DNA of 64,000 nucleotides, taken from positions 205,082 through 269,081 of the forward strand of contig JACJVV010000001.1 in NCBI GenBank assembly GCA_020637495.1. Reading direction: 5' to 3'. A program made the position numbers and the translations under genes. The notes below the pieces were generated by a model. That model was not told the origin of the DNA. It made no database searches and saw only the letters and a program-made list of their open reading frames with translations. Source of the stretch: Candidatus Woesearchaeota archaeon. GTDB lineage: Archaea; Nanobdellota; Nanobdellia; Woesearchaeales; JACJVV01. Of the stretch, positions 3,096 through 56,247 are shown in pieces (the stretch's first letter is position 1; each line of letters opens with the position of its first letter).

Positions 3096-4225
3096 TTGAA
3101 AAAGACCTTGACTTTATCGATCACATAGTCAACTTCTTCATCAGTCATCTCTGGATACATCGGCAAGGATACTACCTCGTTGCTTATTGCAACAGTCTCT
3201 GGAAGATCAAAATGGTCCAGCTTGAGAGGTTTCTGCAGGTGGTTAGGTACGATCCATGAGATCAGATAACCTATGTTATTGCTTTTCAGATATGCTGTGA
3301 ATTCATCACGTCGCTTTGTACGTACAACATAATTCTGATAAACATCAAAATTAGGAGAATCTGAAGGTGCTGGCATAATACCTAGATCAGCTATGTCCTT
3401 AAAGGCATCATCATACTTCTGTGCTATCTCTCTTCTTCTTGATACCCAATCATCAAAGTGCTTGAATTTTGCTGATAGCAATGCTGCATGCAGATTGTCA
3501 AGCCTTGTGCAATAACCATAGCAATTTATCACCTTGACATCATCCACTCGTCCATTATCCCTCAACGCTCGGAGCTTGAATGCCAAAGCATCATCATTGG
3601 TGCAGACAATACCACCATCACCTGCCGTACCAAGCATCTTTGCAGGGTAGAAAGAGAATATGGATGTATCTCCGAATGAACCTGTGTGTTTTCCATTGAA
3701 TTTTGAACCAAGGGCCTGAGCTGCATCCTCTATAACTTTAAGATTATGCTTCTTAGCAAGTTCCATTATCTTGCCCATATCAGCTGCTCTTCCGTTGAGA
3801 TGCACTGGGATTATCCCTTTTGTCTTCGAAGTAATTGCTGCTTCAACCTTTGTCACGTCAATATTATAATCTTTAGCTACGTCAACTAGCACAGGAGTCG
3901 CTCCGCATTGTGCTATAGCACCAATAGTAGCAACAAAAGTATGCCCAACAGTTATTATCTCATCTCCAGGTTTCCAGCCTAGTGCATGCGCTGAGATGTA
4001 GAGTGCATCTGTACCGCTATTCACACCGATTGCATGCTTAACACCTATGTAATCTGCTATCTCCCTCTCAAAATCTTCAAGATGCTTTCGCATGATGAAA
4101 TCACCGTTCGACATTATACCTTCCCATACTGCGTCAAGTTCTGATTTCAATTGTTGATACTGCCTTTTGAAATTCACGAATGGAACTCCTGTTATTTTTT
4201 CACTCTCTATTATCGTGTTCGTCAT
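3092..4225 (-). CDS. DegT/DnrJ/EryC1/StrS-family PLP-dependent sugar aminotransferase
   Basis: FVNFKRQY...GVNSGTDALYISAHALGWKPGDEIITVGHTFVATIGAI...SFYPAKMLGTAGDGGIV are family hallmarks, including the lysine-bearing SFxxxK region. Confidence 0.85.
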   Translation of the reverse strand: MTNTIIESEKITGVPFVNFKRQYQQLKSELDAVWEGIMSNGDFIMRKHLEDFEREIADYIGVKHAIGVNSGTDALYISAHALGWKPGDEIITVGHTFVATIGAIAQCGATPVLVDVAKDYNIDVTKVEAAITSKTKGIIPVHLNGRAADMGKIMELAKKHNLKVIEDAAQALGSKFNGKHTGSFGDTSIFSFYPAKMLGTAGDGGIVCTNDDALAFKLRALRDNGRVDDVKVINCYGYCTRLDNLHAALLSAKFKHFDDWVSRRREIAQKYDDAFKDIADLGIMPAPSDSPNFDVYQNYVVRTKRRDEFTAYLKSNNIGYLISWIVPNHLQKPLKLDHFDLPETVAISNEVVSLPMYPEMTDEEVDYVIDKVKVFFK

Positions 4226-5199
4226 TTTATCATCTCTTGTATCTTTTCTTTAATCTTGTCTGATCTAATATAATATACCTCTTCAAGAACTGAGCTTGCT
4301 GGAGCATGACAATCAGGGAGAGTCAGTCTATGTATAGGCTGTTTAAGATATGAAAATGCCTTTTCAGACGCTATCGCTGATACTTCAGCAGCAACCCCTG
4401 CATGTCTCCATGCTGCATCTACCACAAGCAACTTACCTGTCTTCTTGACGGAGGTGATTATCGCATCTTCATCTATAGGTTTGATCGTACGTAGATCAAT
4501 GATCTCTATATCAATCCCTTTATCTGCTAATTCCTCAGCAGCAACTAACGCTTGCGATACCATATAAGATGTCGCAACAATCGTGAGGTCTTTTCCCTCC
4601 CGTATTATATTTGCTTTTCCTATAGGAACTTCGTACATCTCTTCAGGCACGTCGCCTTTCTCATTGTAAAGCCATCTATCGTCTATATATATCACTGGAT
4701 TATTATCTTTGACACTGGATACCAAAAGCCCTTTCGCATCATATGGTGTGCTAGGCATCACCACTTTTATCCCTGGGATATGCATATACATTGCCTGTGA
4801 TGCCTGTGAATGCTGTGCACCCTGCTCACCACCACGGTTTATTATACTACGTATAGTTACTGGAACATTCGATTTTCCGCCAAACATATAGTTGGCTGCT
4901 GATGCTGAGTTTATTATCTGATCCATGGCAAGATACATGAAATCCATCCTTGGATGCACCATTATAGGGCGCATACCTGCCATCGCTGCGCCTATAGTGA
5001 TTCCTGTGATGCCATTCTCAGAAATTGGAATATCTATGATACGTTCCTCTCCATACTTATCAAAGATTCCTTTCATGCTGTTGCCAACATACCAAGGGCT
5101 CTTTACCCCAATACCCATGACAAATGTATCTGGGGATGATTCTAGCAACTGGTCAAAAGCTTCCTTGATTGCGTCGGCATATGTTATCTCTCTTACCAT
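4222..5199 (-). CDS. Thiamine-diphosphate-dependent 2-oxoacid dehydrogenase E1 component, beta subunit
   Basis: Transketolase-like pyrimidine-binding and C-terminal domains (ITYADAIKEAFDQLL, GIGVKSPWYV...GITGITIGAAMAGMRPI, VVMPSTPYDAKGLL). Confidence 0.8.
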   Translation of the reverse strand: MVREITYADAIKEAFDQLLESSPDTFVMGIGVKSPWYVGNSMKGIFDKYGEERIIDIPISENGITGITIGAAMAGMRPIMVHPRMDFMYLAMDQIINSASAANYMFGGKSNVPVTIRSIINRGGEQGAQHSQASQAMYMHIPGIKVVMPSTPYDAKGLLVSSVKDNNPVIYIDDRWLYNEKGDVPEEMYEVPIGKANIIREGKDLTIVATSYMVSQALVAAEELADKGIDIEIIDLRTIKPIDEDAIITSVKKTGKLLVVDAAWRHAGVAAEVSAIASEKAFSYLKQPIHRLTLPDCHAPASSVLEEVYYIRSDKIKEKIQEMIK

Positions 5200-5245
5200 T
5201 TTTATCTTCGGGCAATGTTAAATTATTCTTTTTTTATCGGCCTTT

Positions 5246-6214
5246 TTAATCAGCATAAATATCATCAAGCAATGTAGCTGGATCAGGTTTGCTGCTTTCT
5301 CTTGCAAACCTGAATGCTTGCTTTACCTCATCATCAACTTCTAACTCAATATCTCTTATCTCAGAATCTAACAACCCTGAAAGTATATCTTTGTTTAGCA
5401 ATGGATCCTTTGCTTTCCATGAATCAATCTCTTGAGCTGTTCTCAAACCTTTATCAATATCAAGCAATGGACCAACATGGCCTTTCCATCTGAAGGTCAT
5501 GCATTCGATGAAAGTAGGGCCTTGGCCATCTCTTGCGCGCTCTGCTGCTTCTTTCACTTTTGAATACACTTCTATCACATCGTTCCCGTCAATCTGAAAG
5601 CTAGGCATGTATGGTTCTGTCTTTAGGTACATATCATCAATGGGTTGTCTTTCTGATAATTTCATATGGGCAGCAGCATTATTATTTTCGCATATCATTA
5701 TTAGTGGGAGTTTCTTGAGTGATGCGAAATTCACTATCTCAGAGAAGACTCCTTCTTCTGTTGCTCCTTCACCAAAAAAAAGCAATGTAACTTTCTTGTC
5801 ATCTCTTAGTTTTGAGGAGAGTGCGACGCCTGCTGCAGGCGCTATCTGTCCTGCAACTATTGCTGTGCTCCCGAACAGATTAACTTCAGGAGAGATAAGG
5901 TGCATCGAACCCCCTCGTCCTTTGCAGCAGCCTGTTGATTTGCAGAATATCTCTGCAACCATTTTCTTTGTGTCTCCACCTTTTGCAATATAATGCCCAT
6001 GACCACGATAGAAAGCAAAAGCATAATCCTCTTTCTCAACAGCACGGCATGCGCCAACTGCTATCGCTTCTTGACCTATATAGAGATGACAAGGAGTCTT
6101 GATCTCTTTATCCTCAGATACGTCAGATATTGCTTCTTCAAACTTCCTTATCCTAAGCATATCCTTGTAAAAAGCAAGGGACTGTTCTTTTGATATCTTT
6201 AGGTTCGTTTTCAT
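5246..6214 (-). CDS. Thiamine-diphosphate-dependent 2-oxoacid dehydrogenase E1 component, alpha subunit
   Basis: YRGHGHYIAKGG and the TPP-binding GDG-N motif FGEGATEEGVFSEIVNFASLKKLPLIMICENN. Confidence 0.8.
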   Translation of the reverse strand: MKTNLKISKEQSLAFYKDMLRIRKFEEAISDVSEDKEIKTPCHLYIGQEAIAVGACRAVEKEDYAFAFYRGHGHYIAKGGDTKKMVAEIFCKSTGCCKGRGGSMHLISPEVNLFGSTAIVAGQIAPAAGVALSSKLRDDKKVTLLFFGEGATEEGVFSEIVNFASLKKLPLIMICENNNAAAHMKLSERQPIDDMYLKTEPYMPSFQIDGNDVIEVYSKVKEAAERARDGQGPTFIECMTFRWKGHVGPLLDIDKGLRTAQEIDSWKAKDPLLNKDILSGLLDSEIRDIELEVDDEVKQAFRFARESSKPDPATLLDDIYAD

Positions 6215-6259: not shown

Positions 6260-7714
6260 TCATAGTTTATTCACTTCACTTGGGTCTTTGAATGTAGGTA
6301 CAATGCCTTTGAGCATGCTGACTAATTCTGATGACTCTAGTTTACCGGTTGTGCATTTTTTTATAAGCTCTTTTGTATGCCCTATGAAATCTGCATGATC
6401 AAAATCTTCATCTTTTGTAACTATGAATATCTTATTGTTTTTTGTAGCATCCGTATGTTCAACTTCTGTCAGAGGCTCTTCATAGAGCTTCTCTCCTGGC
6501 CGAAGACCTACATATCTTATCTCGACATCCTTATCAGGCTCTTTTCCTGAAAGCCTTATCATCCATCTTGCAAGATCCTCTATCTTTATTGGTTCACCCA
6601 TGTCAAGCACGAAGACCTCATCGCCTGTACCCATAACCCAGCATTGGAGTACAAGCTGAGCTGCCTCGTCTATAGTCATGAAATACCTTACTATATCCTT
6701 ATGTGTTATAGTGACATACCCTTGCTGAATCTGTTTCCTGAACGTAGGGATAACGCTTCCATTACTTGCAAGCACATTGCCGAATCGGACTGCCATGAAT
6801 TTTGTCCTCTTACTCTGCTCTTTTGCAACCTGTGAATAATAATGCATCAATTTCTCTGTTACACGTTTTGTCGCGCCCATGACATTTGTTGGATTCACTG
6901 CTTTATCTGAGCTTATCAGTATGAAGCTTTCACAATCATGCTCAAGAGAAAGCTCAAAAAGATTCTTTGTACCAAGTACATTATTCTTTACCGCTTCAAC
7001 AGGATTATGCTCCATGAGAGGCACATGCTTGTATGCAGCTGCATTGAATATTATGTCTGGTTTGGATTCTTGAAAAATCAATCCAATCCTTGCTCTTTCC
7101 TGTATATTTGCAATTACATATTTAACTTTTGTAGTGCATGGTTCCTCAAGGTTTCTGGCTACAGTTGCAAGCCTGTCCTGAAGATAGAATGTCCCATTCT
7201 CCCACCAATCTACTGCGATAAGCTGCTTAGGGTTGAGGCTAAGAAGTTGTGAACATAGTTCGCTGCCGATTGAACCAGCCGCACCAAATACCATGACTGT
7301 CTTCCCTCTTATCTTTGATTTTGCAGGTTCAAAGTCCTGCCGATATATACTTCTTCCCACTAGGTCCTCTACCTGAATCTGACGGACCTGCTCTAAGTTC
7401 ACTACACCATTGACTATCTCTGATATCCTAGGGACAATGTTTATCTTGACTGGTTGATCCCTGCAATTCTGAATTATCTTACGCATCAATGCGCCATTTC
7501 CAGATGGTATTGCTATGAATACTATGCGTATGTCATTCTGGTTTATTATCTCAGGAAGACTATCAACATTGCCTAATATAGGGAGACCGCAATATTCACC
7601 TTTCTTATCATCATCTAAAAAACCTTTTACAGTAATGGATTTTGAATTAGAACTGAGACTCTCTAAAAGTTCTCGGCCTGCTCCTCCTGCTCCTATTATG
7701 AGTGCGTTTTCCAT
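6260..7714 (-). CDS. NDP-sugar 4,6-dehydratase/epimerase of the CapD/PglF/WbpM (polysaccharide biosynthesis protein) family
   Basis: N-terminal Rossmann LIIGAGGAGRELL, a second NAD site VMVFGAAGSIGSELC, YKHVPLME, and FGNVLASNGSVIPTFRKQIQQG. Start is placed at MENALIIG (7714); the track ORF extends 21 codons further upstream. Confidence 0.8.
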   Translation of the reverse strand: MENALIIGAGGAGRELLESLSSNSKSITVKGFLDDDKKGEYCGLPILGNVDSLPEIINQNDIRIVFIAIPSGNGALMRKIIQNCRDQPVKINIVPRISEIVNGVVNLEQVRQIQVEDLVGRSIYRQDFEPAKSKIRGKTVMVFGAAGSIGSELCSQLLSLNPKQLIAVDWWENGTFYLQDRLATVARNLEEPCTTKVKYVIANIQERARIGLIFQESKPDIIFNAAAYKHVPLMEHNPVEAVKNNVLGTKNLFELSLEHDCESFILISSDKAVNPTNVMGATKRVTEKLMHYYSQVAKEQSKRTKFMAVRFGNVLASNGSVIPTFRKQIQQGYVTITHKDIVRYFMTIDEAAQLVLQCWVMGTGDEVFVLDMGEPIKIEDLARWMIRLSGKEPDKDVEIRYVGLRPGEKLYEEPLTEVEHTDATKNNKIFIVTKDEDFDHADFIGHTKELIKKCTTGKLESSELVSMLKGIVPTFKDPSEVNKL

Positions 7715-7865
7715 GAAACCCCCTTTGAAATTGCAACAAAAGTACCTTAAAATTGCAATATAAGTCCAATATAACATGACTAGATAATTGATTTATAAAT
7801 TTTAGTCTTCCAAAGAAGATAAAATTACGCTTAAGGCACTAGGAAATAGAACTAAAAAAGAAAAA

Positions 7866-8333
7866 TCAGTTCCCTGTCGTGAAATAAGGGACACCTAGAT
7901 TCTCATAGACCATCTGTCTTTCTGAAAATAGCGTATGGTATGGTTGCTCACCATAACATTCTCTATAATATCCTTCTGAGTTCATCAGGTCTCTGCTATT
8001 GATACCATCTTTTAATATCACCCTTTTGCATGAGGCACTATTATCCTCGATTTTAGCAAGATGTTTTGAGAGCCTATATACAGTATCATATTTGATCTTG
8101 TCAGAAAGCTTCACATAGCTTCTGGTAGGAGTTCTAGTCTCACCATATGTATTACAATCATCCTGCTCAGCAATCTGAGAAGGAGCATCTGCATCTGAAA
8201 TAGTTTGGTACACCGCCCCAACATGATATAATGATATCTGATTATTAGGGTAATTCTCAATAGCAACTGCTGAAACTGAGAATACAACTAGCATAAAAAA
8301 CATCAAACTAGCAAGTAGAGCATTCTTTTCCAT
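7866..8333 (-). CDS. Small secreted or membrane-anchored hypothetical protein
   Basis: Signal-peptide-like N-terminus MEKNALLASLMFFMLVVFSVSAVA. TATA-like tatataaa lies upstream of the neighbouring + gene, not this one. No family recognised. Confidence 0.4.
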   Translation of the reverse strand: MEKNALLASLMFFMLVVFSVSAVAIENYPNNQISLYHVGAVYQTISDADAPSQIAEQDDCNTYGETRTPTRSYVKLSDKIKYDTVYRLSKHLAKIEDNSASCKRVILKDGINSRDLMNSEGYYRECYGEQPYHTLFSERQMVYENLGVPYFTTGN

Positions 8334-16505: not shown

Positions 16506-16805
16506 TTGATTTCTCTGTATATGGAAGTTGATAAGGAATTACTGGAAAAAGTAGCATCTGTAGCAAGATTAAAGCTTACTGATAAGGAGATCGATAAGTT
16601 TGCGCCTCAGATGAAAGAGATATTGGATTTCTTCGGGAAATTGCAAGAAGTAGATACTGAAGGAATAAGACCAAGTTTCCAGCCTATTGAGATAAAGAAC
16701 AGGCTACGTGAAGATGTAATTGTAAATTCGTTAAGCCAGGAAGATGCATTAAGAAATTCTTCTCTAAAGAAGGATGGTTATTTCAAAGGACCTAAAGCTG
16801 TTTGA
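16506..16805 (+). CDS. gatC: Asp/Glu-tRNA amidotransferase subunit C
   Basis: DKELLEKVASVARLKLTDKEIDKFAPQMKEILDFFGKLQEVDTEGI matches GatC. The actual start may be the internal MEVDK. Confidence 0.8.
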   Translation: MISLYMEVDKELLEKVASVARLKLTDKEIDKFAPQMKEILDFFGKLQEVDTEGIRPSFQPIEIKNRLREDVIVNSLSQEDALRNSSLKKDGYFKGPKAV

Positions 16806-25865: not shown

Positions 25866-26857
25866 TTTTTCGCGTTCTCTTTATGCTCTATATATAATCT
25901 TAAGATTCCTACATTCTGGATCCAGGTGTTTATCTGGTCAACTAGTATTCCTATGAACAATATCACCATAATCTGCCTTATTATATCTGATGAAGTTATC
26001 ATCAAGGCAATAGCAATAGCAACTATTGTTGTCGCATTCATCATGACACCTGTCTTGAATGCAGAATATACCCTGCTGAGCAATGAACCTTCTGAACGTT
26101 TCAACACTCTAGTCGTAAGAAGTATATCAGTGTCAACTGAATAACCTATAAGCATAAGCAATGCTGCAAGGCCTGCTGTTGAGAATTTAATTCCAAGAAG
26201 ATTAGCAATTGCCACTGTTATTGTTATATCTGAGAATGCTGCTAATATTACTGCAATACTTGGAATGAAAGTCCTGAAAGTTATTGATACGATCAGTGCC
26301 ATAAGAATAAATGAACATAATAATGCGATCATTGCTTGATTAAAGAATGACTGGCCAATATTAGCACCTACACCTTCAAGAGAATAATCTTCAAATGTGA
26401 CCTGTGACCTTATTGCTTCTAATAATGAATCTATTGATCCCTGATCATTTAGGTTTATATCTGACTCAATTATTGTCCCTATAGTCCTTCCACCAGATTG
26501 AATATTCCTTATATTGATATTGAAACCATTAGATTGCAGATATTCCTGCAGTGATTCAATATTTATATCGACATTCTCTATTGTTATTGAAATTCCTCCT
26601 TTGAGAGAAATATCTTTTGCGATGAAATCACCAGTAGTTGCCGTTTGAAAACCTATCTGGAATATCGCTAGTAATAGCATTATCAATGGTAAAAGCAGTA
26701 AAAACTTGTAATGATTTACATATGCATTCAAGAAAGGATTCTTTATAGATCTCTGTTTGGGAACATCAGAAACTTCTGTCTGTTCTTTTATACTTGAATC
26801 TTGTGAAAAAGATGATTTTTTCTTGTTCTTAAGTCTCTTCTCTGCGCGTTTAGTCAT
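25862..26857 (-). CDS. secF: Protein-export membrane protein SecF
   Basis: 331 aa with SecF-type 6-TM core (GYSVDTDILLTTRVL). 4-nt overlap with secD. Confidence 0.85.
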   Translation of the reverse strand: MTKRAEKRLKNKKKSSFSQDSSIKEQTEVSDVPKQRSIKNPFLNAYVNHYKFLLLLPLIMLLLAIFQIGFQTATTGDFIAKDISLKGGISITIENVDINIESLQEYLQSNGFNINIRNIQSGGRTIGTIIESDINLNDQGSIDSLLEAIRSQVTFEDYSLEGVGANIGQSFFNQAMIALLCSFILMALIVSITFRTFIPSIAVILAAFSDITITVAIANLLGIKFSTAGLAALLMLIGYSVDTDILLTTRVLKRSEGSLLSRVYSAFKTGVMMNATTIVAIAIALMITSSDIIRQIMVILFIGILVDQINTWIQNVGILRLYIEHKENAKK

Positions 26858-27191
26858 TTTGTAAAGAAAGTATGGCTTCTGCCAAATCTCCGTTTGCGTT
26901 TTCTATTGCTTCCTTAGCCTTTTCCTCATCAACATTTGCCTGATCCATGACAGTCTTAATATCATCATCATTTATTTCGGGCTTAGTATCAAGCGATTGT
27001 TCTACAGGGGTCCCTGTAATCTGGTATGATTCTTGTCCCATCATGTTGACTTTTGCAACTTGTGGATTCGTAAAAACAAGAGCACCATCAGCAGTCTTGA
27101 TTATTACTTCAGTAGCTTCAATATCTACCTGAGAAACGCCCATGCGCTTCATCATTTGCTTCATCTGCCTTGGATTTACTCCTGGAATCAT
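26850..27191 (-). CDS. Nascent polypeptide-associated complex protein (archaeal alpha-NAC)
   Basis: MIPGVNPRQMKQMMKRMGV...EATEVIIKTADGALVFTNPQV NAC domain plus a C-terminal UBA-like DDDIKTVMDQANVDEEKAKEAIENANGDLAEAI. Confidence 0.85.
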   Translation of the reverse strand: MIPGVNPRQMKQMMKRMGVSQVDIEATEVIIKTADGALVFTNPQVAKVNMMGQESYQITGTPVEQSLDTKPEINDDDIKTVMDQANVDEEKAKEAIENANGDLAEAILSLQND

Positions 27192-27266
27192 TTGAATACC
27201 TTAAATATATATATTTTAATTGCTATTTCCAAAAATATATTTGATAACTGATATTTTCAAGGATAA

Positions 27267-27455
27267 CTATCCTAGATTCTGAATCCCCAATGCGCCATAA
27301 CCAAACATGTGAAGAGCTATTATTATCAAAATAACAAGTATTATGATAATTATAACGCTAGCTGGTTTGATGTGGAATTTACTTTTAGATTCATCGAAAT
27401 AACGTGTAATACCTGCGCCTGACATAGGCATATTGATTCTGTTGTCTTTTGCCAT
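27267..27455 (-). CDS. Preprotein translocase subunit Sec61-beta (archaeal SecG)
   Basis: 62 aa; MAKDN...SGAGITRYFDES then a single C-terminal TM, the canonical Sec61-beta architecture. TATA ttttataaaa about 28 nt upstream. Confidence 0.75.
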   Translation of the reverse strand: MAKDNRINMPMSGAGITRYFDESKSKFHIKPASVIIIIILVILIIIALHMFGYGALGIQNLG

Positions 27456-27486
27456 TTTTGTTATAATTGAATGTTGTTTTATAAAA

Positions 27487-27793
27487 TATAGGGAGAGTTA
27501 AGCCACCTTCTGTAGGATGCTTGTAGTGCATAAGCACTGATCATCCTTGCTAGCATTTAACTTAGCCTCATTTGAGTTGCACTGACAGGGGCTCGCCGTT
27601 TCAACTTTCATTGCTTAAGTCTGCTGTTCATTGTTGATGTCGCCATCATTTTACAGCTTTCATCCCGTATAGACAATGAAGTTCGTTTCTGGGCGGTTGC
27701 CTTCCATTTCTGGAACTTATCTTGCAATAAGCAGTCAAACTTAGTGGGTGGACTTTCCTCAGTTTCCCGAAAGCTAACTCATCCCCCTATGGT
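27487..27793 (-). ncRNA. rnpB: RNase P RNA
   Basis: ORF-free, comparatively GC-rich block. Minus-strand reading contains CR-I GAGGAAAGTCC and CR-V ACAGAAGGTGGCTTA. The P4 halves GTCCACC/GGTGGC carry compensatory changes relative to the canonical CCGG. Terminal P1 helix ATAGGGGGATGAGTTA / TAACTCTCCCTAT. TATA TTTATAAATA about 25 nt upstream of the 5' end. Ends approximate to a few nt. Confidence 0.6.
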
Positions 27794-27854
27794 TACGAAG
27801 AAATCAAGACTATTTATAAATGTTATTGATGTGATAAATCAGACATAATGGAGC

Positions 27855-28127
27855 CTAATTCAATCCGAAAGAATCTGTAAATTCTATTATCATCTTATAC
27901 TTATTAAGATATTCAAACCCTTGTGGGGTTATACTATATGTCTTACCTGAAGAAGTATTATTCTCAATTATAAATCCGCTATCCATAAGCTCTTTTAGAT
28001 ATTCGTTCATCATCTTATGAGAAAGGTTGGACTTATACAATATATGAGTTGGCTTTATAGTGCCGTTCTTATTTGATATCGCCTTGAGTATATCATAAAT
28101 GATCTCAAGCCTGTTTCTCTTTCTCAT
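27855..28127 (-). CDS. Winged helix-turn-helix DNA-binding protein (HTH_45-like archaeal regulator)
   Basis: RLEIIYDILKAISNKNGTIKPTHILYKSNLSHKMMNEYLKELMDSGFIIE...YSITPQGFEYL matches the small archaeal wHTH family. Confidence 0.6.
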   Translation of the reverse strand: MRKRNRLEIIYDILKAISNKNGTIKPTHILYKSNLSHKMMNEYLKELMDSGFIIENNTSSGKTYSITPQGFEYLNKYKMIIEFTDSFGLN

Positions 28128-28774
28128 TTTTTGATAATTGTCACCAGATTGAATAGTATGAGTATATAGGCAACAAGCTCTATAAAGTGATAGATCACAT
28201 ATGACATCGCTGATTTCATTGTGAATATATATGTCAAGTCAGCTATGAATAAAAATGTAAAAGCGACCATTATCAATGCAGTATGCAAGTTGGGATTCTT
28301 GAAGAAATTCCCTAAGTAAAATGCAAAGATATATGCAAGCAATACTGAAGATAAGACAAAATAGACATGAGGAAAATTCAATGAGAACATGAAAGGAAGT
28401 GCTGAGATTAATATTAACAACGAATAAAGTTTAGGAGATTTCGTCTTAAATGTCATATATACCAAAGTAACAAGCCCCAATAAATAGAGGATCAGGTGAA
28501 TGTAGAGTTGAACGTAATACCACATAACAGGATCCCATTTTGTAATCTCGCAGAATGACTCATGAAGATTAAAGCAGTTTCCTGCATTGAATATAGCAAG
28601 AATAGCATATGAGAAAGCAATGAATAAGAATCCAAAGCCAAGCAGCTTGGAGTTATTTGACTTAGTAAGCTTAAATATCTTGAATGCAAGAAGACTTACT
28701 AAAAGAGTAACAACTGCAAAAATAGCTTCTGTCAAAGCATCGTATCCTATAAACCAATTAGGTACTACAAACAT
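28124..28774 (-). CDS. Polytopic integral membrane protein, hypothetical
   Basis: 216 aa, 6-7 hydrophobic helices. 4-nt overlap with the downstream wHTH gene (operon). Confidence 0.45.
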   Translation of the reverse strand: MFVVPNWFIGYDALTEAIFAVVTLLVSLLAFKIFKLTKSNNSKLLGFGFLFIAFSYAILAIFNAGNCFNLHESFCEITKWDPVMWYYVQLYIHLILYLLGLVTLVYMTFKTKSPKLYSLLILISALPFMFSLNFPHVYFVLSSVLLAYIFAFYLGNFFKNPNLHTALIMVAFTFLFIADLTYIFTMKSAMSYVIYHFIELVAYILILFNLVTIIKK

Positions 28775-29045
28775 CCATATTAAATACCATCTTGAATTTT
28801 TAAAAGTTATGGATTTATTTTCTAGAATAGATGTGGATAATGTATTAATAAAGGTAATGTGTTCTAATATCTAATCAATATAAATAATCAACTCAACCCA
28901 GAGGTGAAAAAAATGCTTTATCAAGACAAAGTTGGAAACCTTTACATGCCAGATCAAGTAGAAGAACTATCTACTTGGGAAATTGAAGATCTTGGAATAC
29001 ATGTAGCAGAAGAATGGTAAAAGAGATATGAAAACTAAGAATCAA

Positions 29046-29435
29046 TCAACTCTTTACCAACTCATCAAAAGTGAAGCCTTTAAGCTGGGCATCATCTAAA
29101 CCTATAGAGAATCCCCCTTTAGTCTCTTTTAGGTCTTCCAGGGAGAAAAAAAACCACCCTTTTCCCTGGAATTTTATTCCTACCCAAGCCTCAGAACCAA
29201 ACTGGAATGCGAAGGTCTTTAGATCTTCAATTTCTTGTTTTGGAAAATATTTCCTCTTTTCTTTTGTAGCTTTAACCTCAATCGCTACTTTTCTCATAGA
29301 ATTTCCCGCAATAATATCTGGACAAGGATATCTTGAACTTCCGCTTCCTGCTGCCCGGAAAGCAGCCCAATTGGCATCCTGAAGCATGTGTATCAAATCA
29401 CGCTCAGCTGTAGTACCTTTCTGCTTAGTGTTCAT
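29046..29435 (-). CDS. hjc: Holliday junction resolvase Hjc
   Basis: KGTTAERDLIHMLQDANWAAFRAAGSGSSRYPCPDIIAGNSMRKVAIEVKATK matches the Hjc catalytic core (E, PD, EVK). Confidence 0.85.
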   Translation of the reverse strand: MNTKQKGTTAERDLIHMLQDANWAAFRAAGSGSSRYPCPDIIAGNSMRKVAIEVKATKEKRKYFPKQEIEDLKTFAFQFGSEAWVGIKFQGKGWFFFSLEDLKETKGGFSIGLDDAQLKGFTFDELVKS

Positions 29436-29549
29436 CCAATAAATTTAGAGAAATAGGTTTATTAATGTTTTCTGCATAGATGTCCTATGGTAGAAGTAAA
29501 TCATATTATTGAGGAAAAATTTAAAAATGACAGCATTGTATTTTGTTGC

Positions 29550-29771
29550 ATGTCTATCTCAAAATCTTCAAGGCTATTGCCTTTAGCAACAATGGAGAAC
29601 CTGATGCTTGAAGCAGGAGCAGAAAGAGTAAGTGAAGATGCAAAAAAAGAATTAAAATCAATACTTGAAGGATATGCTACAGATATCGCTGAAAAATCAA
29701 TAAAATATGCGAAACATGCAGGCAGGAAGACCATAAAAAGTGAAGACATCAAGCTTGCGCTAAAGAATTAA
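29550..29771 (+). CDS. Archaeal histone (HMf-type histone fold)
   Basis: LPLATMENLMLEAGAERVSEDAKKELKSILEGYATDIAEKSIKYAKHAGRKTIKSEDIKLALKN aligns along the HMfB histone fold. Start placed at MSISKSS; the track ORF starts 21 codons earlier. Confidence 0.85.
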   Translation: MSISKSSRLLPLATMENLMLEAGAERVSEDAKKELKSILEGYATDIAEKSIKYAKHAGRKTIKSEDIKLALKN

Positions 29772-30342
29772 GATCTTTTTCTAATTGTTCGTTTGAAATA
29801 AAAAGTATCGCCTTAAAACCCAATCTTGATGCTGCTAGAATATTCTTCTCTTTATCGTCGACGAATATGCTTTCTTCGGCTAAGATATCAGCATCATGCA
29901 GCATCAATTCAAAGAAAGAAGAATTAGGTTTTGTCATCTTATATTCACATGAGAAATATATGCCTTTGAAATTATCCAATAAAGAAGAGAAATCATTCTT
30001 CAATATCTCTACGTTCTTTGGATTGTTATTTGATAGTATATAAAGGTTAAATATCTTAAATTTATTCAATTTTGACACAAGGTTTGAGTTCCATTTTATT
30101 GCTGACTTAAAAGCAAGATCAATCTTTTCAGATGAATCTTCTACACCCATGTTGACTATCGCAGTACAAAAATCTAAATAAGAAAGTTTGCCGCTATCCA
30201 TCTGGCAAACAAGACCATCGACCCTATCCACATCAAGCACATGTTCAGATATCTTCTGCAATTCAGCCACTAAAGAAGGCGTATAACGACCTATAGTAAG
30301 CACACCTCCCCAATCAAATATCAGATTCTTTATCGTCATCAT
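29749..30342 (-). CDS. HAD-superfamily hydrolase (subfamily IA-like)
   Basis: N-terminal LIFDWGGVLT (DxG motif I) and a C-terminal FVDDKEKN motif IV. Confidence 0.7.
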   Translation of the reverse strand: MMTIKNLIFDWGGVLTIGRYTPSLVAELQKISEHVLDVDRVDGLVCQMDSGKLSYLDFCTAIVNMGVEDSSEKIDLAFKSAIKWNSNLVSKLNKFKIFNLYILSNNNPKNVEILKNDFSSLLDNFKGIYFSCEYKMTKPNSSFFELMLHDADILAEESIFVDDKEKNILAASRLGFKAILFISNEQLEKDLNSLAQA

Positions 30343-30349
30343 TCCTTTA

Positions 30350-31267
30350 CTAAACCTTGATTTTCATAAAATCAAAACCAGCATAACTCTCTGGGAATAT
30401 ATCACGTGCCTCTTCCTCTAATTCTGAGACGTCGCTATATCTTTGACTAAAATGAGTCATCACAAGTTTTTTAGCATTTGCTTCATGTGCTATCTGGGCA
30501 GCCTGCTTAACACTCATATGCTTATACTGATCAGCCTTGTCTACGTGCTTATCTAAGTAAGTGGCTTCGCTTATTACAACATCGGCATCTTGTGCAAGAA
30601 TTATAGTATTCTTCACATAAGCTGTATCCATGATAAAAGCGATAACTTTTCCCGGTACAAGATAAGTCAACTCATCTGATGAATAACTCTTCCCTTTAAA
30701 CTCAATTGATCTACCATCCTGTAATTTACCAAGCAATGGTCCTTCTGGAATCCCTAATTTAGATGTTTTTGATGTCGAGATTCTACGTTTATCCTTCTCT
30801 ACAAACCTATACCCTAAAGTAGGTATGCCATGGTCCAATGATATCGCTTGAAGATAATAATTTGGTGATTCATAGAACGTCTCAAGCTTGTCCTTGTCTT
30901 TTGGGATTATCTCTGTTATTTTCAGATTTAATCTTGAGATGTTACCGAAATATGTTGAATTCATCAGCATCTCAAACCGCTTTTTAGTCTCTTTAGGGCC
31001 AAATATCTCAATAGTAGTTCCTTCCGTATTATTGCTTATCGTCTGTATCAAACCTAGCATTCCTGCAACATGATCGCCATGCCAATGGCTTATCAATATC
31101 TTCTTGACCTTGTTCCTATTGATATTGGCAATATTCATCTGACGTTGTGTACCCTCGCCACAATCAACCAATATACCCTCACCATTAAAATCTAGAAAAA
31201 AGCTTGTAACATTCCTTTCCTTTGTAGGAACCATGCAAGATGTCCCCAATAATGTCAATTGGATCAT
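30350..31267 (-). CDS. rnz: Ribonuclease Z (tRNA 3'-processing endonuclease, metallo-beta-lactamase fold)
   Basis: MIQLTLLGTS...ILVDCGEGTQRQM...ILISHWHGDHVAGMLGL (HxHxDH). The length is that of short-form RNase Z. Confidence 0.85.
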   Translation of the reverse strand: MIQLTLLGTSCMVPTKERNVTSFFLDFNGEGILVDCGEGTQRQMNIANINRNKVKKILISHWHGDHVAGMLGLIQTISNNTEGTTIEIFGPKETKKRFEMLMNSTYFGNISRLNLKITEIIPKDKDKLETFYESPNYYLQAISLDHGIPTLGYRFVEKDKRRISTSKTSKLGIPEGPLLGKLQDGRSIEFKGKSYSSDELTYLVPGKVIAFIMDTAYVKNTIILAQDADVVISEATYLDKHVDKADQYKHMSVKQAAQIAHEANAKKLVMTHFSQRYSDVSELEEEARDIFPESYAGFDFMKIKV

Positions 31268-31329
31268 GTCATCCCTGAACCAGACAGCATTTAAAAACTT
31301 TTATAAATCCTCAAAGGACTTTAAAATCC

Positions 31330-31995
31330 ATGCCAAGAAAGAAGATAGCTTCGGAAACAAAGGAGAGAAAAGCAAAGAAAACTGAGTCTAAGCCTTCAAA
31401 TAAAGAGGATAAGAAAAAGTCTGCCAAAAATCAAAAAGAGATTGAGAGTGAAACGGTTTCTAAGAGAAAGACTGAGAAGATTGAAGCTTTCTTCCTTAAT
31501 GACAGCATCGTAACAGAATGTTCCAATGAAGCAAGATTGCTATATGAAAAATCAAGATTCGGAACTTTGCTTGAAGATGGTAGAGTCCAATTAACATTGA
31601 TTGAAGGCTACCATCTATTGGATAAGGATAAGATCGATCTCAGACAAGGCAAGAGATTATTAGGCAAAGAAGAATTTAGGAAAAAATGCATCAGGCTTGA
31701 GAAAAATTTCTGGACAAGATACATAGTTTATGCTGATTTCAGGAATCGAGGATATATAATCAAAACTGCATTAAAATTCGGCGCAGATTTCAGAGTATAT
31801 GACAAAGGTGTAAAACCGGGAGAAGATCATGCACGATGGATAGTATATCCTGTCAAAGAGACGGACTCCTTGACATGGTATGAATTTGCAGCCAAGAATA
31901 GAGTTGCACATTCAACCAAGAAAAGGCTATTAGTAGGAGTAGTTGATGAAGAGAATTCTGTAACGTACTATGAAATAAAATGGACTCGCCCATAA
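31330..31995 (+). CDS. endA: tRNA-splicing endonuclease catalytic subunit (EndA) with an N-terminal Lys/Glu-rich extension
   Basis: YIVYADFRNRGYIIKTALKFGADFRVYDKG...HARWIVYPV is the EndA catalytic-domain signature. Confidence 0.8.
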   Translation: MPRKKIASETKERKAKKTESKPSNKEDKKKSAKNQKEIESETVSKRKTEKIEAFFLNDSIVTECSNEARLLYEKSRFGTLLEDGRVQLTLIEGYHLLDKDKIDLRQGKRLLGKEEFRKKCIRLEKNFWTRYIVYADFRNRGYIIKTALKFGADFRVYDKGVKPGEDHARWIVYPVKETDSLTWYEFAAKNRVAHSTKKRLLVGVVDEENSVTYYEIKWTRP

Positions 31996-42149: not shown

Positions 42150-42184
42150 TCCTTTAAAAAGGAAATATACTTGGGGGTATGCAA

Positions 42185-42739
42185 ATGGCAAAACCAGAAC
42201 CAAAAAATATCAGAATTGTAAATATTGTTGTATCAACTTCTTTTGAAAAAGCTATTCCGCTTGAAAAGATGGCTGCTACACTCTCTAATACAGAGTATAA
42301 TCCAGAACAGTTCCCTGGGTTGGTCATTAGGATAAAGGAACCTAAGACTTCTGCATTAATCTTTTCGTCAGGAAAAATTGTCTGTACAGGTGCAAGAACA
42401 ATGGAAGAGGTTGATGAAAGCATCAAGCAGATAATAAAGAGTCTTGAAAAAATAAATGTGAAGATAACAATCAAACCAGAGATCACCATACAGAATATAG
42501 TCGCTTCAGGAGAGATAGGTATAATATTGAATCTTAATGAGCTTGCAATGAAGCTTGAAAACACAGAATATGAACCAGAGCAATTCCCAGGATTGGTATA
42601 TAAGCTGAGGGATTGTCAAGCAACATTCCTGCTGTTCAGCAACGGAAAAATTGTCTGCACTGGAACAAAATCTGACGAAGATATAGGCATTGCTGTTGAC
42701 AAGTTGATTGAAAACCTGAAGAAAGTCAACAAGAAATAG
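42185..42739 (+). CDS. tbp: TATA-box binding protein
   Basis: Two direct repeats: NIVVSTSFEKAIPLEKMAATLSNTEYNPEQFPGLVIRIKEPKTSALIFSSGKIVCTGA and NIVASGEIGIILNLNELAMKLENTEYEPEQFPGLVYKL...NGKIVCTG. The alternative start is ATG 42179. Confidence 0.9.
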   Translation: MAKPEPKNIRIVNIVVSTSFEKAIPLEKMAATLSNTEYNPEQFPGLVIRIKEPKTSALIFSSGKIVCTGARTMEEVDESIKQIIKSLEKINVKITIKPEITIQNIVASGEIGIILNLNELAMKLENTEYEPEQFPGLVYKLRDCQATFLLFSNGKIVCTGTKSDEDIGIAVDKLIENLKKVNKK

Positions 42740-54848: not shown

Positions 54849-54872
54849 GTTCCATGGGAAATGGAGGGGACA
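54849..54872 (+). promoter_or_regulatory. ORB element (forward orientation) at the right border of the origin
   Basis: GTTCCATGGGAAAT-gga-GGGGAC, the same dyad-plus-G-string structure as 54552-54579 but inverted relative to it. Confidence 0.5.
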
Positions 54873-54979
54873 CTAACATTGTTATTGAAACAACAATTAC
54901 TTTTTCTAATAATATATTATATTCAACTTTTTATTTTTATTTCAATAGTTTTATATATGGATGTCTAATCAACTTTATT

Positions 54980-55381
54980 ATGGATTATACTCAATTATTG
55001 AAACGGGCACGAGAAGGACTTCCTGAAATAGTTTCTGTAAGGGAAAGGTTTGAAGTGCCAAAAGTGAAAGGACACTTACAAGGAAATAGAACTGTTATTA
55101 GTAATTTTTCTATGATCTGTAGCACTTTAAGACGACAACCACAACATATTTTAAAATATCTCCTTAAAGAGCTAGCAACTTCAGGTGAGATAAAAAATAA
55201 TTTACTAGTCTTTAATAGGAAACTATCATCATTAGCAATAAATCAAAAAGTTCGTCAATATACTAATATGTATGTGCTTTGCACAGAATGTGGGAAACCA
55301 GATACAAAAATCCTAATTGAAGGCAATATAAGTTATCTTAAATGTCAAGCCTGTGGCGCAAAACATCATATCAAAAATTAA
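54980..55381 (+). CDS. Translation initiation factor aIF2 beta subunit
   Basis: MDYTQLLKRAREGLPE...ERFEVPKVKGHLQGNRTVISNF...LLKYLLKELATSGE and the C-terminal zinc ribbon CTECGKPDT...CQACG. The track ORF start at 54854 would run into the origin and is rejected. Confidence 0.85.
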   Translation: MDYTQLLKRAREGLPEIVSVRERFEVPKVKGHLQGNRTVISNFSMICSTLRRQPQHILKYLLKELATSGEIKNNLLVFNRKLSSLAINQKVRQYTNMYVLCTECGKPDTKILIEGNISYLKCQACGAKHHIKN

Positions 55382-55728: not shown

Positions 55729-56247
55729 TCATTCTTTATTTTTCATTTCTTTTTCTATATCAGTTATCTCTTTTTTTATATCATTAATCTTTTTAGAATT
55801 GTCTTCTTGATTTAGCAATTCTCCACATTCTGGACATCTATATTCAAAATTTGTAGCTTGTTCAAAATCTATCCTTAAACATTGGTTTATACATGAAAAA
55901 AATTGACCTGCTTCCTCACGTGAAAGCCTATCTTTAAGTGTCTCAAGTTTTTTCTTTTTGAGATCTCCAGAGAGGTATTTTATACGTTCAAGATTCAATG
56001 ACCAATAATATATATACCATCCTTTCTTCTTGTCTTTTTTCCTGATGAAATCTACGAGATTTTGGTTATATAATCTATAAAGTTGATTCCTTATTACATC
56101 AACTGGAATCTTTATTTTAGAGGATATCTGAAATTCTGAACTATTTTTTGAAGTTTTTAGATAATCTACTAAGGGTATTATATCTTCACCTACAGCTTCA
56201 GCTATAACATCCTCTACTATTTTTTTGGTTAACTTAACCTCTCCCAA
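55729..56247 (-). CDS. tfe: Transcription factor E (TFE-alpha, TFIIE-alpha homologue)
   Basis: Winged-helix signature KKGWYIYYWSLN plus a C-terminal zinc ribbon CINQC...CPECG. Confidence 0.85.
   Translation of the reverse strand: MGEVKLTKKIVEDVIAEAVGEDIIPLVDYLKTSKNSSEFQISSKIKIPVDVIRNQLYRLYNQNLVDFIRKKDKKKGWYIYYWSLNLERIKYLSGDLKKKKLETLKDRLSREEAGQFFSCINQCLRIDFEQATNFEYRCPECGELLNQEDNSKKINDIKKEITDIEKEMKNKE

Follow-up and report, generated by a model that had tools for sequence, protein, structure and literature searches.

What is encoded by the GC-rich interval directly upstream of the Sec61beta gene in the window (the whole stretch of DNA that was analysed, 64,000 nucleotides long)? The first-pass annotation had read it as an RNase P RNA gene on the minus strand, at 27487-27793, within an ORF-free island of higher GC. 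RNase P, a universal enzyme, trims tRNAs at their 5′ ends. Checking the base composition, we found a GC content of 0.425-0.445 across 27500-27799 versus 0.27-0.33 in the flanks. No ORF of at least 40 aa covers the region; one 48-aa GTG ORF clips only its 3′ end. The island is thus as described.

Scanning Rfam 15 with cmscan, we found that the archaeal RNase P family, RF00373, matches 27486-27790 on the minus strand at 123.8 bits (E = 3.4e-34). This is 40 bits over the gathering score of 84, and the match is full length, covering model positions 1-288 of 288. The search that had been proposed for this locus therefore gave a clear positive result, and it moved the ends of the RNA by only a few nucleotides. 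RF00373 is the best member of its Rfam clan for this RNA and the sole gathering-score match in the whole 64 kb. The gene is as follows.

27486 to 27790, minus strand: RNase P RNA gene, 305 nt; RF00373 match, MFE z-score -4.1

The minus strand of this interval reads AUAGGGGGAUGAGUUAGCUUUCGGGAAACU-GAGGAAAGUCC...ACAGAAGGUGGCUUA-ACUCUCCCUAUAU.

The interval might instead hold another structured RNA (an SRP RNA, a riboswitch or a snoRNA-like RNA) or a small protein gene. What speaks for this reading is limited to flanking Rfam matches at chance level (E ≥ 0.7) and the 48-aa ORF at the 3′ end. In a permissive Rfam scan of 26800-28500, no other family fell below E = 0.7 and no SRP RNA appeared, so the better SRP RNA match that had been named as grounds for rejecting the gene did not materialize. 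The 48-aa ORF (27391-27537, minus strand) covers only the last 50 nt or so of the RNA and runs out of frame over the Sec61beta gene; we judged it spurious. Together, the RF00373 match and the permissive scan refute this alternative, to which we leave next to no probability. We are highly confident that 27486-27790 encodes, on the minus strand, the catalytic RNA subunit of the ribonucleoprotein RNase P of an AT-rich DPANN archaeon near the Woesearchaeota MAGs. Any Rfam-based annotation would also detect this gene.

To compare the RNA with its relatives, we collected homologous loci in two ways. SecF was used as a query against a species-representative genome collection and gave two loci, both from Candidatus Woesearchaeota MAGs. 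The first (L001, 64% SecF identity) encodes an RNase P RNA in the corresponding place, with 125.3 bits on RF00373; in the second (L002, 43% SecF identity), none lies within 20 kb. Scanning metagenomes with the 15-mer of the conserved region CR-V of the window RNA gave 120 loci. About 105 of these were chance matches that lacked CR-I and were set aside. CR-I lay at the correct distance in 14 metagenome loci, and 11 of the 14 pass the RF00373 gathering score, with 132-169 bits. The other three had significant E-values and missed the gathering score because of large insertions.

2086 to 2507 of L108, plus strand: RNase P RNA with CR-I, CR-V and P19 and a large insertion in the S domain; 74.3 bits
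388 to 781 of L061, plus strand: RNase P RNA with CR-I, CR-V and a branched P19 of about 90 nt; 54.3 bits
1370 to 1674 of L045, minus strand: RNase P RNA with CR-I, CR-V and P19; 44.8 bits

Since relatives with larger insertions fall under the gathering score, standard pipelines would report some of these genomes as having no RNase P RNA.

The conserved regions CR-I to CR-V are all present in the window RNA. The first-pass annotation had located CR-I and CR-V, and both were recovered at 27760-27750 and 27513-27499, respectively. The RF00373 alignment and the comparison with relatives gave the following core, listed in the order of the RNA from its 5′ end where strands permit.

27779 to 27790, minus strand: 5′ strand of P1, AUAGGGGGAUGA; its outer 9 nt pair with 27488-27496, and four of the five P1 pairs tested changed on both sides
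27773 to 27778, minus strand: 5′ strand of P2, GUUAGC; 6/6 pairs changed on both sides, 91% of cells paired
27760 to 27769, minus strand: minimal P3, a 3-bp stem (CGG/CUG) with a GAAA loop, from the RF00373 alignment
27750 to 27760, minus strand: CR-I, GAGGAAAGUCC, invariant in all 13 homologues; the 5′ strand of P4 is 27755-27747, with bulged U27752
27584 to 27736, minus strand: specificity domain (P7, P8, P9, interrupted P10/11, CR-II, P12, CR-III); helices 5-11 all changed on both sides
27731-27716, minus strand: P8, CUUAU/AUAAG; 5/5 pairs changed on both sides
27715-27702, minus strand: P9, within the specificity domain
27690-27683, minus strand: CR-II, AGAAACGA, within the specificity domain
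27603-27596, minus strand: CR-III, UGAAACGG, within the specificity domain
27577 to 27580, minus strand: end of P5 and J5/15, GCAA (invariant G211 C212 A213 A214), at the 'A anchor' position
27555 to 27566, minus strand: CR-IV and J15/2, GCUAAGUUAAAU, largely invariant
27549 to 27554, minus strand: 3′ strand of P2, GCUAGC, with the covariation given for the 5′ strand
27499 to 27513, minus strand: CR-V, ACAGAAGGUGGCUUA; the 3′ strand of P4 is 27507-27500
27488 to 27498, minus strand: 3′ strand of P1, from the RF00373 alignment, RNAalifold and pair counting

The covariation set comprised 13 homologues (the Woesearchaeota MAG and metagenome contigs) aligned by MAFFT (alignment A1). Running RNAalifold on these 13 sequences, with no structure supplied, we recovered P1, P2, P5, P7, P8, P9, P12 and P15. 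Pairs were then counted on the RNAalifold structure with P4 added as a pseudoknot; the controls were partners slid by 1-3 columns and 500 shuffles. The canonical fold paired 92.1% of cells across the 13 homologues, compared with 31-45% when the partners were slid. Changes on both sides were seen at 51 of the 62 pairs, and none of the 500 shuffles reached any observed measure. P1, P2, P5/P7, P9 and P12 each contain pairs that changed on both sides. Covariation thus supports P1, P2, P5, P7, P8, P9, P12 and P15. The minimum free energy fold of the single sequence drew CR-V into a long P1 and missed P4 and P2; it was not adopted as the structure.

The P4 pseudoknot between CR-I and CR-V, with its bulged U, has 8 pairs, and 100% of its cells are paired in the 13 sequences. 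The earlier reading had claimed a compensatory substitution in P4. Such a change is genuinely there: A27749-U27505 replaces the c-g pair of the Rfam consensus (UCCcCCC / GGgGGc). In the homologue set, which was retrieved with the CR-V 15-mer of the window and so samples only RNAs sharing that P4 variant, 11 sequences have A-U at this pair and 2 have G-U, and P4 is otherwise invariant; because the search pattern fixed CR-V, the set does not assess P4 covariation independently.

The terminal P1 helix that had been drawn for this RNA stood in part. Its outer 9 bp (AUAGGGGGA / UCUCCCUAU) are borne out by the homologues. The inner extension GAGUUA/UAACUC is complementary in the window, but only 44.9% of its cells are paired among the homologues, which equals the shuffled mean of 45.8%. 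It also overlaps P2 (GUUAGC/GCUAGC) and the UUA of CR-V, and we rejected it.

P3 is 3 bp long in the window RNA, compared with 5 bp in the consensus and 3-11 bp in the relatives. In the specificity domain, P10/11 is interrupted: GG-CAA-CCGC is aligned to <<---<<<< of the model. P12 carries a GNRA loop and a K-turn-like AUGA...GA motif, in which A128-U129-G130 is invariant and A131 and G170 are nearly so. We take this motif to resemble the L7Ae-binding K-turn of other archaeal RNase P RNAs.

Besides its short P3, the RNA shows two real departures from the consensus, a P15 stub and a P19 hairpin, both overlooked in the first-pass annotation. The stub is as follows.

27567 to 27576, minus strand: P15 stub hairpin, CUC-AAAU-GAG, 10 nt; 3/3 pairs covary, 100% paired

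In the RF00373 alignment, L15, P16, P17 and P6 are not present in the window RNA, and 35 model positions (L15/P16/P17) are deleted. Without a P17 loop, no P6 pseudoknot is possible. A stub P15 is common to 10 of the 16 RNAs examined, and its stems covary as CUC/GAG, GUC/GAC, GGCC/GGCC and GGUU/AACC; four of the 16 have a longer P15-P16. As it has no L15, the window RNA cannot base-pair with the 3′-RCCA of tRNA. In general searches with ARAGORN and at the Rfam gathering score, rather than searches directed at intron-containing or split tRNAs, we found no tRNA gene in the 64-kb window, where an EndA gene is present; the RNase P loci had none either. Only two tRNA genes were found, both in the more distant L002. 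CCA is encoded in neither, but two genes are too small a sample for a conclusion on encoded CCA, a point that bears on the missing L15.

The second departure is a hairpin between the 3′ strands of P2 and P4.

27514 to 27547, minus strand: P19 hairpin, 34 nt; basal stem AGGAUG/CAUCCU, distal stem AGUGC/GCACU, loop UUAU

It starts one nucleotide after the 3′ strand of P2 and ends abutting the ACAGAA of CR-V. This position, between the P2 and P4 3′ strands, is the one defined for P19 (PMC6565675, PMC13022451). All 16 RNAs examined have a helix at this site, from 17 to about 90 nt long. Usually it has two tiers, a basal stem of 5-6 bp and a distal stem, separated by an internal loop that is asymmetric and A-rich. 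From the plain MAFFT alignment, RNAalifold independently recovered the basal stem, whose 5/5 pairs show compensatory changes. We also built a small covariance model of the P19 segment (R1) and aligned 15 RNAs to it. On this alignment, which is fitted to the model, 90.5% of cells are paired versus 23-47% when slid, both partners changed at 11 of the 12 pairs, and none of 500 shuffles reaches the observed covariation score.

The internal loop is A-rich on its 3′ side, where the window has UACAAG and many relatives have NAAAA. On the 5′ side, the basal stem is followed by a conserved A. A K-turn reading of this loop was dropped, as its 3′ strand lacks G-A. The loop may be a docking site for protein or RNA.

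Is this helix the P19 of other RNase P RNAs? Position is the sole basis for treating the window helix as homologous to bacterial or eukaryal P19. Thus, the hairpin at 27514-27547 could be a lineage-specific expansion in J2/4 that is not homologous to bacterial, archaeal or eukaryal P19, with the gene still being an RNase P RNA. The wide range of hairpin lengths and the branching in L061 would fit such an expansion, and the Rfam archaeal consensus has a short single-stranded joiner at this site and no helix; nor is positional homology provable with the present data. Against it, the helix lies at exactly the same site in every RNA examined. A survey of 298 archaeal RNase P RNAs (2026) reports P19 in various clades, variable in length and sporadically lost; P19 extends the P2 stacking and was inferred to be ancestral (PMC12974513). 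In an older table, P19 is likewise entered for archaeal type A RNAs, and type M is listed as lacking it (PMC2858038). We consider a separate expansion unlikely and call the helix P19. The survey further describes independent deletions of P16 and P17 (with P6) in multiple archaeal lineages, and reduced P3 and P2 in some Nanoarchaeales (PMC12974513). P19 and the independent losses of P16/P17 are thus already described across archaea, and the window RNA is not a new kind of RNase P RNA.

We then looked at the signals that flank the gene.

27811 to 27820, minus strand: TATA box of the RNA gene, TTTATAAATA; the 8-mer starts 31 nt upstream of the modelled 5′ end
27477 to 27486, minus strand: TTTT run at the 3′ end of the RNA, merging into TATA-like TTTTATAAAA, about 30 nt before the Sec61beta ATG (27455)
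27267 to 27455, minus strand: Sec61beta gene (PF03911, NF002318), the conserved downstream neighbour

A TATA box upstream of the RNA had been claimed, and we located it at 27820-27811 with its 8-mer at -31. Most of the 13 homologues have a TATA-like box that starts at -31 to -34. It reads (A/T)TTTATAA in 7 homologues and is a close variant in most others; L017 and L118 are less clear. With the box at this distance, the primary transcript should start at the mature 5′ end or within a few nucleotides of it. The RNA is probably transcribed from this promoter of its own and would end at the oligo-T run directly after P1. A run of at least 4 Ts lies within 25 nt of the RNA 3′ end in 10/13 homologues, and the run in the window is likely an archaeal terminator.

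The neighbouring gene, read earlier as sec61-beta, is indeed identified as such by its PF03911 and NF002318 matches. The earlier proposal that a second TATA box serves it is plausible from the position of TTTTATAAAA, whose distance of about 30 nt from the ATG would imply a leaderless Sec61beta mRNA. In at least 7 of the 13 loci (the window, L001, L106, L027, L084, L060 and L112), Sec61beta comes after the RNase P RNA, on its strand, with a spacer of 20-33 nt. Such a spacer is too short for a promoter that lies wholly outside the RNA gene, which argues for an overlapping terminator and promoter or for co-transcription. NAC follows Sec61beta in L001, L032, L084 and L065; in L032 and L065, Sec61beta is further from the RNA.

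The synteny extends beyond this junction. Downstream of the RNA, on the same strand, lie Sec61beta, NAC, SecF and SecD. Upstream are genes for an Sso10a-family winged-helix protein, a membrane protein, Hjc, a histone, a HAD hydrolase and RNase Z, followed by a divergent tRNA-splicing endonuclease. L001 keeps the same gene block in the same order, HAD excepted. Three tRNA-maturation functions (RNase P RNA, RNase Z and EndA) lie within 4.5 kb (27486-31995), and this block is kept at 5462-9443 of L001.

30350-31267, minus strand: RNase Z (TIGR02651, 314.8 bits)
31330-31995, plus strand: tRNA-splicing endonuclease EndA (TIGR00324)
27855-28127, minus strand: Sso10a-family winged-helix protein (NF053610, 70 bits), directly upstream of the RNA
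29487-29771, plus strand: archaeal histone with an N-terminal extension of about 25 aa
29046-29435, minus strand: Hjc resolvase

The last three are chromatin and DNA genes that flank the RNA. Other information-processing genes of the window encode TBP (42179-42739, plus strand), TFE-alpha (55729-56247, minus strand), aIF2-beta (54854-55381, plus strand) and GatC (16506-16805, plus strand). In the metagenome locus L017 (155-7958, minus strand), about 2.8 kb separate the RNase P RNA (155-464) from a same-strand rRNA operon upstream of it (16S at 6486-7958, 23S at 3265-6191). This 16S could place that relative taxonomically.

These observations bear on whether the gene might be a decaying, non-functional copy, with tRNA 5′ processing left to another copy or to the protein-only enzyme HARP. 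The score of the window RNA is lower than that of some relatives, which reach 169 bits, and its P3 and P15 are minimal. However, none of the five conserved regions is disrupted, and P4 pairs in full. L001, L046, L108 and others retain this reduced architecture, with compensatory changes, and the promoter and synteny are conserved. HARP, moreover, is reported to be absent from all DPANN genomes examined (PMC6380272). A decaying copy is therefore highly improbable in our view. The gene is best regarded as an ordinary housekeeping gene for the essential tRNA 5′-processing ribozyme of an uncultivated DPANN archaeon, and the value of the finding lies mainly in annotation.

How might this RNA work? 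The P4 pseudoknot (CR-I/CR-V, with its bulged U) and CR-IV would form the active site, which binds metal ions and cleaves the 5′ leader off pre-tRNAs. The T-loop module of CR-II/CR-III would hold the tRNA elbow together with P8 and P9. The adenosine of J5/15 would stack on the end of the acceptor stem, as the 'A anchor' of J5/15 does on the tRNA acceptor end (PMC6565675). The RNA, which cannot pair with 3′-RCCA, should depend on the archaeal protein subunits. Its activity would rely on Pop5, Rpp30, Rpp21, Rpp29 and L7Ae, like that of type M and eukaryal RNAs; as for type M RNAs, no activity in trans is expected when the proteins are left out (PMC6565675, PMC13022451).

We scanned 20 small or mid-sized ORFs of the window and found no RNase P protein gene among them. 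These genes usually sit elsewhere in archaeal genomes, so their absence from the 20 ORFs is uninformative.

P19, lying between the P2 and P4 3′ strands, is predicted to stack on P2/P3. In Methanocaldococcus jannaschii, an artificial P19 at the same site made the holoenzyme, otherwise a dimer, monomeric and less active (PMC6565675). By analogy, the natural P19 predicts a monomeric holoenzyme here, in which the hairpin would block the formation of a two-RNA dimer; we offer the monomeric state as a hypothesis. A broader proposal, which we hold tentatively and think somewhat doubtful, is that Woesearchaeales-type RNAs combine a eukaryote-like catalytic domain with a P19 that makes the enzyme an obligate monomer, and that the spacing of RNase P RNA and Sec61beta may reflect co-transcription. 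An obligate monomer would be expected because P19 occupies the surface used by the second RNA in the M. jannaschii dimer. If this is true, the Woesearchaeales-type RNase P would be a living intermediate between the dimeric archaeal and the monomeric eukaryal enzymes. The clade supplies natural archaeal RNAs that bear P19 and lack L15, with which the dimer/monomer idea about P19 drawn from the M. jannaschii cryo-EM could be probed.

Where does the window RNA stand among the known RNase P RNAs? Type A is defined by P8, L15/P16/P17/P6 and an interrupted P10/11; type M is defined by the lack of P8 and of L15/P16/P17/P6 and by an uninterrupted P10/11 (PMC1874661). The window RNA has the P8 and the interrupted P10/11 of type A together with the missing L15/P16/P17/P6 of type M. 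With type A RNAs (Methanothermobacter thermautotrophicus, Pyrococcus) it shares CR-I to CR-V, P4, P1-P3, P5, P7-P9, the interrupted P10/11 and P12. P19 is likewise found in some type A members (PMC2858038, PMC12974513). Unlike the window RNA, whose P3 has only 3 bp, type A RNAs have L15, P16, P17 and P6 (PMC1874661).

With type M RNAs (M. jannaschii, Archaeoglobus), the window RNA shares a short P15 hairpin with a small terminal loop (PMC1874661, PMC6565675) and the absence of the 3′-RCCA-binding L15 and of P16, P17 and P6. Type M RNAs, in contrast, lack P8 and have an elongated, uninterrupted P10/11, and they are listed as lacking P19 (PMC2858038).

The bacterial type B RNA (Geobacillus stearothermophilus, PDB 2A64) resembles the window RNA in a P19 that extends the P2 stacking (PMC12974513). 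Its architecture is bacterial (P5.1, P10.1, P15.1 and P18), with one small protein, and apart from P19 the two molecules are unrelated.

Eukaryal nuclear RNase P RNAs (human H1, yeast RPR1) share with the window RNA the lack of L15 and a P19 between P2 and P4, which in the eukaryal RNAs is followed by J19/4 (PMC6565675, PMC13022451). In contrast to them, the window RNA is archaeal in sequence and in its S domain and has no extended P3 with an internal loop. Its protein set would presumably be the five archaeal subunits. In summary, the window RNA fits neither textbook archaeal type: it joins a type A specificity domain to a type M-like, eukaryote-like catalytic domain and carries P19.
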